64,000 nucleotides of DNA from Actinomycetota bacterium (lineage in GTDB: Bacteria; Actinomycetota; Acidimicrobiia; Spongiisociales; UBA11373): NCBI GenBank assembly GCA_018821365.1, contig JAHJML010000174.1, positions 10,067-74,066 of the forward strand, written 5' to 3'. The notes beneath the pieces were generated by a model, which was given only the letters and a program-made list of their open reading frames with translations, was not told the origin of the DNA and made no database searches. Every line of letters begins with the position of its first letter. Position 1 is the first letter of the stretch. This document shows positions 56,431-63,619 of this stretch, piece by piece. The position numbers and the translations under genes were made by a program.

Positions 56431-56550
56431 CCCGGATCGCGATGCTCCGTCAGGCGGTGGCGATCGTGCTCCTGCTCGTGGTGCGCTCGATCATGGGGAG
56501 GCGGCGCAAGGCCTGAGGGCGAGGCACGGCCGCTTTCAGCCGACCTCGCT

Positions 56551-57084
56551 ATGCTTCGGTTTCGAAGGGTAGACCTGATGTCGCCGAGGCGGCTCATTGT
56601 CGGGATCGTTGCCCTGCTCGTGTCAGGGTGCGGGGCTGCCGCTCAACCCCAGCCCGGGGTCCGCTTCGTGGCAATACTGCCCGTTCCTGTCGACCAGGCG
56701 TCGCGGGCGGTGCTCACCTTCGACATCTCCGATGACGGCAGGCTCATCGAGTACCTGCTCCTCGATCTCACCGATCTCGAATGTGCCACCGTTGGCGCCG
56801 AGCGCTCGAACTTCGTGCAACTCGTCGACGCACCGATCGAGGCCGGACGGTTCACCGTTGAGAGCTCGGGCGTCGGGGTGCTCAGCGGACAATTCGTGTC
56901 CCCGACCCATGCCCGCGGCGAGGTGACGCTGCACATCGACACGCTCGGGGCGCTCACCAACTTCATCATCCACGACCCGGACGCCTCGTGCGACCTGGGC
57001 ACCTACCAATGGGAGGCCGAGGCTGCCGGCGAGGCGCCGTCGATGCCGACGGCGCCCTCCCTGCCCTCCGAGGTCGTGCCGTAG
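56551..57084 (+). CDS. hypothetical lipoprotein
   Basis: Lipobox LLVSGCGAAAQ. Likely start at the internal ATG approx 56578. Confidence 0.45.
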   Translation: MLRFRRVDLMSPRRLIVGIVALLVSGCGAAAQPQPGVRFVAILPVPVDQASRAVLTFDISDDGRLIEYLLLDLTDLECATVGAERSNFVQLVDAPIEAGRFTVESSGVGVLSGQFVSPTHARGEVTLHIDTLGALTNFIIHDPDASCDLGTYQWEAEAAGEAPSMPTAPSLPSEVVP

Positions 57085-57507
57085 GGCGTCGCCGGTGCCC
57101 GGGCTACCTCTTCACACACATGTCGTCGGCAGAGCACCACCGCCAGTGGAACGGTGCCACGATGCCCCGGTCAGTTCCTTTCTCGAAGGAGACACAGATG
57201 ATCACCCGGTCGAGTCCCAGATTGGCGATTCCCCGTTGACCAGCGGGCAGATCACGGAAGCATCCTGCGTGGCCACCGTAGAACGTGGCGCTCGGCGGTC
57301 TCGTCACGGTTCCTCCGGCCGAGGACGCACGGTCGACGACTCGGTCGACTTCGTCGCTTGAGCGCACGTTGTGAGCGAGCGCCAGGGGTCCCGAGGGGGC
57401 GTTGATGTGACCATCCCCTGGGCCCCCCTGGGCCAGCGTGCAGGAAGGTCATCGGAGGTCGAGAGCACACCGGAAGCTCTCATCTGAGTCTGTCCGGGGA
57501 GGGCGTG

Positions 57508-58053
57508 TCAGGCTGGCCGCAGTGTCACCTCCCAGCTGCAGTTGTCCACGTACTCTGAGGAAGGTCCAGTGGGTTCAGTGACTAGCCGAAACTCATCGGA
57601 AGGCAAGACGTCGGACACCAGCTCTTGCGTGTCGGACACGCTGCCGGGGTCATCAGGGGCGGAGTAGGTGAGCCACCAGTAGACGTCCTCAGGGCCGAAG
57701 GCACTGCTCTTCTCAATCCTGACAACCATTGCGCACGAGCCGTCGTCGATGTAGCTGGCGGTCGCCTCGACGATGTAGCGGTTGGATGGCCCCGGTAGGG
57801 GGAAGGGTTCTGAGGTGAAGGCACCGGTGCCGGAGAGGTGCACGGCTCCCTCCGCAAGGGTGGTGGTGCCCAGCGTGGTCGTTGTAGGTGGTGGTTCAGT
57901 TGTGGTTGTGGGCTGTGTTTCGGTCGTGGTCGCCTGACTACCGGTGGTGATCGAGGTGGATGCCCCAGTGGTAGTGAGGGTGCCCCCGTCGTCGCCACAG
58001 GCAGTGAGCATGAGAGACACCAGTGTGAGGACGAGGGCCGCTCGGGTCCGCAT
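57508..58053 (-). CDS. hypothetical lipoprotein with Thr-rich linker
   Basis: Lipobox LMLTACGDD followed by T-rich low complexity, then a globular domain. Lower GC than the window average. Confidence 0.5.
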   Translation of the reverse strand: MRTRAALVLTLVSLMLTACGDDGGTLTTTGASTSITTGSQATTTETQPTTTTEPPPTTTTLGTTTLAEGAVHLSGTGAFTSEPFPLPGPSNRYIVEATASYIDDGSCAMVVRIEKSSAFGPEDVYWWLTYSAPDDPGSVSDTQELVSDVLPSDEFRLVTEPTGPSSEYVDNCSWEVTLRPA

Positions 58054-58274
58054 GTCAAGCCTCCCCCTGGCGTTGTGATAGCAGGATACCCGGCGTGTGG
58101 TCTTCTTTGACTTGTCCGGACAAACGCGACTCGCCGCGGTGAACGGTCAAGCTGCCCCGTCAGCCGAGGGTGAGCGGCAGCGAGAAGTCGACTCTGGTGA
58201 AGTGTCCGCAGGGATCCTGAGGGACCGTTTCACGTACCCCGTCTGAGGATCAGTCTGAACCACCGGCCCGGCAG

Positions 58275-58706
58275 GTGGAGTTGGAGTACCTTGAGGGAGA
58301 GCAATTGGAGGTGTGTGTCACGCCCAAGACATGGTCGGCCATACTGATTGGGCTCGGTGTCACGGTTCTCACCTTCGTGATCCTTAGAGCATTCAGCGAC
58401 GACTTCTTGAGGGTGAGAGACGGCGGTAACTTCCGCCTCAGCCTTGTCTGGATGGTGATCCTGGGGTTTGGTATCGGTGGCGCGGCGCTGGCAGGAGTGA
58501 GGTATCACCCGCTCGTCGCGGCCGTCCCGGCAGTCCTCCTATTGGCCCTCTACGTTCCGGTCTTCAAGGATCTGATGGCTCCGAGTTGGTACCCGGAGTG
58601 GGTCAGGGCTGGGGTGTTGCCCGCGTTCAGTCCGGTGCCGTTCACGATCATTGGCGTGCTCGGCTTTTCGAGCCTGTGGTCGGCCTGGAATCGATGGCGC
58701 GACTGA
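58275..58706 (+). CDS. hypothetical four-TM membrane protein
   Basis: Hydrophobic helices and coherent lower-GC codon usage. Confidence 0.4.
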   Translation: MELEYLEGEQLEVCVTPKTWSAILIGLGVTVLTFVILRAFSDDFLRVRDGGNFRLSLVWMVILGFGIGGAALAGVRYHPLVAAVPAVLLLALYVPVFKDLMAPSWYPEWVRAGVLPAFSPVPFTIIGVLGFSSLWSAWNRWRD

Positions 58707-62329: not shown

Positions 62330-62343
62330 ACCGCTAGTTGCCC

Positions 62344-62559
62344 TCACTCGCTGCATAGGCCTTGGGCAATCGCTCCCAGTTCCCGGAGGTGCTTCCTCAG
62401 TTCCTTGAGTCCTTGAGGAGACAGGACCACAGCGACGAGGTCCTTCCATCCGGGCTTGCCCGTTGCCTTGATGAGATTCTGCAGGCCGTCACCGACCTGG
62501 GCCCGGGTTATCGGATTGCCATAGGGATCGTGGCCCGTCCCAAGGGCGGCGACTGCCAA
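62344..62559 (-). pseudogene. truncated paralog fragment of the 59613-60362 gene
   Basis: HDPYGNPITRAQVGDGLQNLIKAT aligns to LDPFGNPISNTQITGGLRTLISMVT of the upstream gene. DNA differences are concentrated at synonymous third positions, so the similarity is at the protein level. Only 71 aa and lacks the N-terminal region. Confidence 0.35.
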
Positions 62560-63328
62560 TCGGGAACCGCTATAGCCATCCTTGAGGAGGTGGAGGGGAT
62601 CTTCCGGGAGCTAGGAAATGTGCTCGAACTGGCCAAGACACTCGTCAATCGCGGCATGATGACCGGCGAGGCCGGCCGTGCAGACCAAGCCCTGGATCTC
62701 ATCCGGGCAGGCCTCCAAGTGGCAGCAGAGCACGGTCTGTCGGACCTGGAGCACCAGATCGAGCAGCTACTGACGCACCGGATCCAACAGATACAGCGGG
62801 CCTCCAGAGGGGGAAGTCCTTGGCGGGACCGGCTGCGGCCGACTCTGAATCCAATCCGGAGTCTGCCCCCAGTCCGCGCCCCACACCCGCAACCAGGGCG
62901 AACCACAATCCGCAGCAGACGCTCAGTCGTCGATCACCAGATGGATAGCCGACTCGGGGGAGAGGGCACGGCCCTCGGCCCCGAGCTCCCCGAGACGTTC
63001 AACGACCATGGCCTCGGTGAGAGCCTCTCTGACCTGGCGGCGACGGACCTCGGTCTCGGGATCCAGGGGGACTGGACTCGGCCTCCAGGCGATCCACGAC
63101 GCCGAGCGGGCGGGCCGCTCGATCCGGGTCACCCGTCGCCAACTCGATGGCGGGCCACCCCAGGACAACCCAGATCTGAAGCCAGTACACCGAGGTGAAC
63201 CCGGGATCCCCAAACAGCAACCCTGCGTGACCGACATACCGCTCCCTGGCGTCGGCCTCCCCGAGTTCCTGGCCGTTGAGAGCACGCATCGCCACGTCGG
63301 GCCGCAGCGACACTCCCCTGCCGACAAG

Positions 63329-63526
63329 GTGCGGGGCGCCTCCCTCGCATCGATCCTGGGTCCGATCGCCGCGAATCCCCAGCGGCTGGGGAAGCCACTC
63401 CTCGGTGAGGGACTCCGTTCCGCCCGACGAGGTGACTACCGCATCATCTACGAGATCTTCGAGGACGAGCAGGTTGTCCTCATCCATCGCGTGCAACATC
63501 GCCGAGATGTCTACCGGCCCCGCTGA
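63329..63526 (+). pseudogene. RelE/ParE-family toxin remnant (C-terminal core only)
   Basis: C-terminus GKPLLGEGLRSARRGDYRIIYEIFEDEQVVLIHRVQHRRDVYRPR matches the RelE/ParE core. Only about 65 aa from the nearest in-frame GTG; no cognate antitoxin ORF is evident. Confidence 0.4.
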
Positions 63527-63619
63527 TCAAGGCCGGCCCTGAACCGTAACGCGATCGCGGGAAAATCCCCGCAGGCGTACCGACGACCCTTCGCCTCGAC
63601 TGCGACGACGCCGCCCTTC

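Follow-up and report, generated by a model that had tools for sequence, protein, structure and literature searches.

In the 64-kb stretch of DNA from an uncultured Acidimicrobiia bacterium analysed here (hereafter the window, meaning the whole stretch; GC content 68.1%), the segment from about 56090 to 63619, directly 3' of a tRNA-Leu(CAA) gene, is with high probability a lineage-specific, mosaic insertion without an integrase. The islet is an ordinary and genuine tRNA-linked genomic island that is now immobile and partly decayed. An earlier sequence-only reading of the window had described an accessory island at this position, and this description holds: the segment is absent from relatives, deviates in composition and is full of decayed genes. 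The ends proposed at that time (56431 and 63600) lie approximately 350 and 20 bp, respectively, from those defined by synteny. The gene list given with them (lipoproteins, a membrane protein, a small CxxC protein, an unknown protein and a WD40 protein) was confirmed from the sequence or with Pfam.

The insertion at tRNA-Leu(CAA) and its edges

The DNA polymerase I gene (polA) was used as a query to fetch 78 related loci (L-numbered), and the flanks of the relatives were compared over 10 kb. The best PolA matches are from uncultured Acidimicrobiia (83% amino-acid identity for L001, 82% for L002 and 66-74% for about 20 others). The adjacency of polA, a small gene and tRNA-Leu(CAA) is kept in 26 relatives. 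In 16 relatives the distance between the tRNA and the gene nadE (glutamine-dependent NAD synthetase; Pfam CN_hydrolase and NAD_synthase) is 91-1564 bp. In two relatives the tRNA is adjoined by a homologue of the small membrane-protein gene found at 63620-63940 in the window (57% amino-acid identity and a gap of ~35 bp in L001; 48% and 48 bp in L011), and the gene that follows is nadE. The interval between the tRNA and this membrane-protein gene is 7.5 kb in the window, and searches of the relatives' 10-kb flanks matched none of the island proteins. Because the relatives keep the order polA, small gene, tRNA-Leu, (membrane gene), nadE, the segment ~56090-63619 is an insertion. Synteny places its left end at 56090 or 56380 and its right end at 63527-63619. 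The comparison with related genomes that the sequence-only reading had proposed thus finds a segment that is not syntenic across the lineage, with the tRNA 0.1-1.6 kb from nadE elsewhere.

Protein and RNA families were searched for with Pfam on all open reading frames (ORFs), a Pfam six-frame stop-to-stop scan (E <= 0.1), NCBIfam, PADLOC-DB v2 and Rfam; tRNA genes were called with ARAGORN and the Rfam tRNA model. The features of the segment and its flanks are as follows (window position, strand, identity and basis of the call).

53040-55667, minus: DNA polymerase I (polA), by Pfam
55698-55970, minus: small conserved gene adjoining polA, in an order kept in relatives
56004-56089, plus: tRNA-Leu(CAA), the left anchor, with its CCA end encoded (ARAGORN; Rfam, 59.7 bits)
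56064-56423, plus: tandem array of 145-bp units headed by the 26-nt tRNA 3' end (repeat comparison)
56578-57084, plus: lipoprotein 1 (lipo1), with a signal peptide and the lipobox LVSGC (read from the sequence)
57251-57388, minus: VOC/glyoxalase pseudogene fragment, C-terminal third (Pfam Glyoxalase, 25.6 bits, E = 1.7e-5)
57508-58053, minus: lipoprotein 2 (lipo2), with a Cys lipobox and a Thr-rich linker (read from the sequence)
58275-58706, plus: small membrane protein with four hydrophobic segments (by inspection); GC content 0.60, GC content at third codon positions (GC3) 0.76
59246-59599, plus: small CxxC...CxxC protein, previously called a Zn-ribbon protein (13-sequence family alignment)
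59637-60362, plus: unk249, a two-domain all-alpha protein (ORF and structure model)
60296-62329, plus: WD40 propeller protein of 14-blade scale, a TEP1/NWD1-like sensor arm (Pfam)
62344-62610, minus: truncated paralogue of the unk249 N-subdomain (tblastn)
62575-62810, plus: TPR_12-type fragment of ~80 residues (Pfam TPR_12, E = 0.005)
63323-63526, plus: ParE/RelE toxin remnant (Pfam ParE_toxin, E = 1.8e-9)
63620-63940, minus: right-hand flank gene, outside the island, encoding a 106-residue small membrane protein; GC3 0.91

The stretch 55293-63925 has a collinear counterpart, 99.86% identical, in an independent metagenome-assembled genome contig (JAHJPV010000208.1; L079) that spans both junctions, and two further same-species contigs (L080 and L081) match the window at 99.6-100% identity. 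Because all three are independent and collinear, and the first covers both junctions, an assembly artefact is excluded. The same conservation and collinearity in independent same-species assemblies mean that the island is fixed in the sampled population and is not a recent arrival.

The composition of the window is not uniform, as the sliding-window GC and tetranucleotide analysis suggested by the sequence-only reading confirms. The GC drop reported from 57.1 to 59.6 kb is real, with values of 0.62-0.64 in 1-kb windows, but it was overstated. The background is 68% and not 70%, the 1-kb windows at 57.5-59.5 kb (0.619-0.635) lie ~2-2.5 standard deviations below the window mean (0.681, standard deviation 0.024), and the high 50s (0.588-0.598) are reached by two 400-nt windows only. 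The tetranucleotide distance from the window mean is greater at 57.5-59.5 kb (z = 3.35) than anywhere else in the window, with a second peak at 60.5-62.5 kb (z = 2.8). The clearest compositional signal is GC3. The host mean is 0.877 (38 genes, standard deviation 0.050), whereas the island genes, lipo1 apart, have values of 0.69-0.81 (Mann-Whitney p = 1.7e-4): 0.74 for lipo2, 0.76 for both the membrane protein and the CxxC protein, 0.81 for unk249, 0.79 for the WD40 protein and 0.69-0.74 for the fragments. The codon usage of the island is foreign-like. Host-like DNA resumes at 63620, in agreement with the earlier placement near 63.6 kb, with a flank that is syntenic and has the high GC3 listed above.

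Elsewhere in the window, the stretch at 27154-34400 beside tRNA-Leu(GAG) has a total GC content of 0.63-0.66 and a tetranucleotide z of ~2, and the GC3 of its genes is 0.87-0.93. Its dip in total GC at 29.5-32 kb resembles that of the island. It was considered as a second island and rejected; because its GC3 is host-like, the dip is attributed to amino-acid composition and not to foreign origin.

The tRNA gene itself has been rearranged in some relatives. Together with ~30 bp upstream, tRNA-Leu(CAA) is inverted with respect to polA and the downstream flank in L001 (9563-9647) and L017 (9608-9691), and its orientation in the remaining 24 relatives is as in the window. A likely reading is that this recombination-prone site underwent a small inversion twice, independently.

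The absence of the segment from relatives could also mean that it is ancestral at this site and was deleted in those that lack it. That the nearest comparators are distant (PolA identity of at most 83%) would suit such a history, as would the local tRNA inversion in L001, where the site has been rearranged. It would, however, need independent clean deletions in at least 16 lineages that keep the tRNA beside nadE or the membrane gene. The GC3 and tetranucleotide deviations favour a foreign origin, and the closest relatives of the CxxC, unk249 and WD40 genes (the three-gene module described below) are found in Chloroflexi and in metagenome contigs of 52-65% GC, not in Acidimicrobiia neighbours. 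Ancestral presence is accordingly rated as very improbable. An intact element with its integrase just beyond the window, a possibility raised by the sequence-only reading, is excluded by synteny. The lack of an integrase inside the window is all that speaks for it, whereas the conserved right flank, 63620-63940, lies inside the window, its orthologues abut the tRNA in L001 and L011 and the next gene in the relatives is nadE.

tRNA 3'-end repeats and the origin of the cargo

The insertion is preceded by repeats of the tRNA 3' end. Three copies of the last 26 nt are present, namely the tRNA's own end (from 56064), an identical one (from 56209) and one with two mismatches (from 56354), with none expected by chance. 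Each 145-bp unit consists of the 26-nt tRNA 3' end and a 119-nt spacer; the first and second units differ at six positions, and the spacer of the third diverges after ~44 nt. The same-species contig L080 (strains more than 99.5% identical) has one extra unit, the first 46 spacer nucleotides of which resemble those of the third unit. A homologous array is present in L002, the closest relative with sequence here, and L007 and L018 have tandem tRNA 3' arrays of their own with unrelated spacers.

Independent extra copies of the tRNA 3' end are present in L002, L007, L018, L048 and L055. The duplication in L018 comprises the tRNA end and over 70 nt of the L018 flank, and the copies in L048 and L055 lie 3.4 and 1.9 kb from the tRNA, respectively. 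The L048 copy (22 of 24 nucleotides) and tRNA-Leu(CAA) bound a 3.4-kb islet (~6186-9642 in locus coordinates) with a Fic/DOC gene and two unknown genes. Like the island in the window, this islet of a distant relative adjoins tRNA-Leu(CAA) and has no integrase. Recurring repeats that run from the T-arm to the CCA end are the trace left by tRNA-targeting integrases.

A long hairpin (-62.8 kcal/mol, z = -3.7) is formed by the spacer of the first unit in the window. It was rejected as a general feature of such arrays, since the units of L002, L007 and L018 fold poorly. No match to the exact 3' half of the tRNA was found in a metagenome scan. Over 55.9-64 kb the tRNA is the only Rfam match, promoter and terminator scans gave no match, and matches in phage and plasmid DNA searches were limited to the WD40 repeats and the ParE fragment.

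On balance we lean towards the view that most of the cargo entered through the action of an integrase. At least one tyrosine-integrase element would have integrated at the tRNA 3' end and left the tandem 26-nt copies, with later integrations or duplications on the proximal side. Later deletions would have removed the integrase and the distal attachment (att) site and truncated several genes (at least four are truncated: VOC, TPR, unk249-N and ParE), leaving as residue the envelope accessory genes, the intact three-gene module and debris. The sequence-only reading had suggested an old integrative element that lost its integrase. Its island status stands; a single element is too simple a description, and the integrase origin of the 7.2-kb cargo is something that we infer. 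The island is mosaic and records more than one event, because its pieces differ in history: the GC3 of lipo1 is host-like, lipo2 is found elsewhere as a single-gene cassette and the module is shared with Chloroflexi.

Several observations weigh against the integrase route. Pfam searches of all ORFs and the six-frame scan (E <= 0.1) found no recombinase or transposase, in keeping with the earlier statement that the window has no integrase; outside the WD40 gene the six-frame scan matched ParE, Glyoxalase and TPR_12 only. A distal att repeat, the search for which had been proposed earlier, was looked for with the 26-nt core (up to eight mismatches) and by blastn-short with the 145-nt unit, and nothing above chance was found; within 56431-63640 the core is matched with no fewer than 7 of 26 mismatches, a level that shuffles also reach. 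All copies of the tRNA 3' end lie at the proximal end (56064-56379), so that the 7.2-kb cargo is outside the copies and not between them. The spacers of the 145-bp units are 96% identical and the number of units varies among strains; tandem duplication by unequal recombination therefore fits the units as well as serial integration does. The GC3 of lipo1 (0.85) is host-like. Finally, PolA identity to the closest relatives is no more than 82-83%, a distance too large for dating or counting the events.

Two repeats were considered as boundaries and set aside. A 35-nt repeat match at 60013-60047 was rejected as a distal att site, as it lies within the unk249 coding region and has 8 of 26 core mismatches. 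A direct repeat pair bracketing the module (58984-59019 and 62886-62921, 27 of 36 nt) was not used, with ~0.2-0.5 such pairs expected by chance in 8.5 kb (binomial estimate).

The same observations bear on a different history, in which the cargo accreted by illegitimate or homologous recombination in a permissive, hypervariable spot between tRNA-Leu and nadE, and the tRNA repeats are unrelated tandem duplications. Relatives carry other small lipoprotein or membrane-protein genes here (L004, L007, L016 and L026), or a META-domain gene (L002), with no integrase. The shared spacer and strain-variable number of the 145-bp units, the flank duplicated along with the tRNA end in L018, the movement of lipo2 on its own and the position of the cargo outside the repeats all agree with accretion. 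Random duplication does not, however, predict that the duplications begin at the same 24-26-nt T-arm-to-CCA segment in at least five independent lineages, and the copies in L048 and L055 bracket cargo. Accretion is a possible account of the islet to which we attach a lower probability than to integrase-mediated entry.

The tRNA-Leu(CAA)/nadE junction emerges as a recurrent recombination hotspot in Acidimicrobiia, with tRNA 3' repeats and small cargo in several lineages and a number of units that differs between near-identical strains. These copy-number-variable units of tRNA 3' end and spacer could reflect an unrecognised activity, for example repeated integration and abortive excision with an integrase acting in trans. 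The island is one more case in which accessory and defence-related DNA has collected in the 3' flank of a tRNA gene, in a class that is uncultured and has received little study. The unannotated unk249 family, linked to TEP1-like WD40 and DUF4062-NACHT genes, and the copy-number-variable tRNA 3' arrays give it some additional interest.

The three-gene module and the remaining cargo

The CxxC, unk249 and WD40 ORFs are intact and full length when compared with their homologues. In the CxxC protein the motif DTSDWNIC is invariant, and the tail reads WWQFWK. The 13-sequence alignment places its start at MAVCDICS, giving a protein of 117 residues; the public annotation of JAHJPV010000208.1 has 97 residues, as it starts 20 codons late and loses the first CxxC.

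The unk249 protein belongs to no Pfam, NCBIfam or PADLOC family. It has few close homologues (56-62% identity), some of which are fused N-terminally to Lcl_C or HEAT repeats; ankyrin and pentapeptide modules also occur as N-terminal fusions. When 1.84 billion representatives were searched with a profile, 212 cluster representatives matched (E <= 1e-3). The search divides the protein into an N-subdomain and a promiscuous C-subdomain, with HEAT, ankyrin, pentapeptide, Lcl_C and LysM domains as partners. The AlphaFold2 model (predicted local distance difference test score of 94.2) predicts two helical bundles and a small sheet, with no specific fold match in the PDB.

The WD40 protein matches Pfam WD40 (E = 3e-116) and Beta-prop_TEP1_C (E = 1e-32). 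Its N-terminal hinge segment is present and the NTPase domain is absent; translation probably begins inside the ORF, somewhere from 60398 to 60452. Among the island proteins it gave the single match in PADLOC-DB v2, to the repeat model HEAT-ARM_XIII.

The genomic contexts of the homologues suggest a possible link to NLR-like immunity. In Ornatilinea apprima (Chloroflexi; LGCL01000044, L082) the CxxC, unk249 and WD40 genes are co-located, with amino-acid identities of 47-59%. The order there is a DUF4062-NACHT P-loop protein (482 residues), an NWD1-like winged-helix/APAF1-helical protein (415 residues), Lcl_C-unk249, WD40, a TPR protein and the CxxC protein. The WD40 orthologue is 52.7% identical over 659 residues, pre-propeller hinge included, and the CxxC homologue is 46.6% identical. 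In L095 the order is DUF4062-NACHT-TPR (1191 residues), a 215-residue protein, Ank-unk249 and then WD40. The same adjacency of unk249 followed by WD40 is found in L083 and L096, the former of which also encodes a 1719-residue DUF4062-AAA-WD40 protein and a TIR protein. Altogether, unk249 is followed by a TEP1-like WD40 gene in five independent contexts, and DUF4062-NACHT genes lie upstream of the pair in L082, L083 and L095, which are all three contexts with enough upstream sequence. These two regularities make unk249, a protein family without a Pfam model, a candidate adaptor of NLR-like bacterial immunity. The steadier partner of the CxxC protein is a small TPR protein (L082, L091 and L092), and the CxxC protein is also found without STAND genes.

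Within the O. apprima locus, the four consecutive ORFs at 1896-7849 look like a split TEP1/NWD1-like STAND protein, with the unk249 gene between the NTPase and the sensor arm.

In our island the C-terminal repeat sensor of such a system is present, as the WD40 gene is orthologous to those adjoining DUF4062-NACHT genes in L082 and L095. No P-loop STAND NTPase was found in the island (Pfam; tblastn with the L082 NTPase) or in the 64-kb window (E <= 0.1), and there is no match to DUF4062 or TIR as an effector domain in the window. Because the window has neither DUF4062 nor a STAND NTPase, the module is orphaned here. Judged from gene content and context, it is most likely the sensor/adaptor remnant of an NLR-like immune system, and it is probably either inert or a sensor/adaptor with its partner encoded elsewhere.

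Fragments beside the module look like leftovers of further components. The unk249 paralogue fragment (match at 62368-62556) is 39% identical over 64 residues (E = 5e-7) to unk249 residues 47-108 and keeps the DPxGNPIT motif. A truncated paralogue had been reported from the sequence; this fragment supports the report, although it is perhaps not the one that was meant, while a signal-peptide-like stub at 56442-56516 was rejected as a truncated paralogue, having a 24-nt, 79% match only, which is at chance level. The TPR fragment has weak NCBIfam matches to the TPR regions of AfsR and TOMM proteins and is 53% identical over 40 residues to the TPR arm of the L095 DUF4062-NACHT-TPR protein, a similarity that is weak and generic for the repeat class. 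TPR_12-type repeats form the C-terminal arm of STAND NTPases.

The module might instead be a complete stand-alone system, an NTPase-independent sensor/adaptor or envelope-stress system, with the island kept by selection. The three intact, full-length ORFs agree with this, as do the single indel between strains, which is in frame (3 bp, in unk249), the fixation of the island in three independent assemblies and the occurrence of the CxxC protein away from STAND genes. Against it, the DUF4062-NACHT NTPase that accompanies the genes in every context with enough upstream sequence is missing from the window, the adjacent unk249-copy and TPR-arm fragments indicate lost parts and the strain differences are too few for measuring selection. 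We consider a self-sufficient module unlikely.

A more speculative extension, which we put forward tentatively, is that the CxxC protein, unk249 and the detached WD40 protein are conserved accessory subunits of an undescribed multi-gene DUF4062-NACHT variant in which arm and adaptor are encoded separately from the NTPase. If this were true, the window would hold an orphan set still working in trans, or a marker of how such systems fall apart.

At the right end of the island, the ParE remnant covers profile positions 36-89 of 89 only, corresponding to residues 22-88 of an 89-residue Rhodococcus plasmid ParE, and has no usable in-frame start codon nearby. No ParD or Phd-YefM antitoxin was found upstream (no Pfam match at E <= 1; tblastn with Rhodococcus Phd, E = 0.24). 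The degraded RelE/ParE toxin noted from the sequence is therefore borne out. A Phd/YefM-like reading of 63080-63150 was supported by neither Pfam nor tblastn. A coding-looking fragment on the minus strand at ~63060-63290 (...YVGHAGLLFGDPGFTSVYWLQIWVVLGWP...) has no family match.

At the left end, neither lipo1 nor the membrane protein at 58275-58706 has a family match in Pfam or NCBIfam. Of the 121 positions of the Glyoxalase profile, the VOC fragment retains 68-113; its frame runs from stop to stop, at 57107-57448. An orthologue of lipo2 is present in a metagenome contig (L085, 6569-7253) at 80% amino-acid and 83% nucleotide identity, between a DUF222/HNH endonuclease gene and PBP2. The shared segment is window 57429-58114 only, which is the gene with ~70 bp of flank on each side; because no more than this is shared and the context in L085 differs, lipo2 has travelled on its own, as a cassette of one gene. 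The 540-bp stretch 58707-59245 contains no ORF and no protein-family or RNA-family match.

Comparison with known systems

Tyrosine-integrase elements that target tRNA 3' ends include phage-like integrative elements and actinobacterial integrative and conjugative elements of the AICE/pSAM2 type. The island resembles this class in its position directly 3' of a tRNA, the 26-nt direct copies, the atypical composition, the absence from relatives and a cargo of accessory, defence-like and toxin-antitoxin genes. It differs in having no integrase, excisionase, replication or transfer genes and no att site at the distal boundary. Its repeats lie in a proximal 145-bp tandem array with the cargo outside, and its content is mosaic with several truncated genes.

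Compared with ParDE and Phd-ParE modules, the C-terminal two-thirds of ParE remains recognisable (48% identical to the Rhodococcus plasmid ParE), whereas ~21 N-terminal residues, the start codon and the antitoxin gene are missing, which makes it a remnant and not a module.

A further comparison is with NWD1/TEP1-like STAND systems. DUF4062 is a TIR-like NADase, and the DUF4062-NACHT-helical-WD40 arrangement is the NWD1/TEP1 architecture (bioRxiv 10.64898/2026.05.01.722283). Repeat-rich NTP-dependent conflict systems of similar style have been described (Kaur et al., 2020; PMC7159879). As far as searched, no description of the unk249 and CxxC families was found in either source. The experimentally characterised Swarozyc system combines DUF4062 with an auxiliary domain and has no counterpart in the island. 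The window departs from NWD1/TEP1-like systems in lacking DUF4062, a P-loop NTPase and an effector, and in having its propeller as a separate gene. It shares several features with them: the island WD40 protein combines the hinge preceding the propeller with a C-terminal propeller signature of TEP1 type, WD40 orthologues and unk249 homologues lie directly downstream of DUF4062-NACHT genes on three other contigs, and the partner domains of unk249 (HEAT, Ank, pentapeptide and TPR) are typical superstructure-forming repeats.

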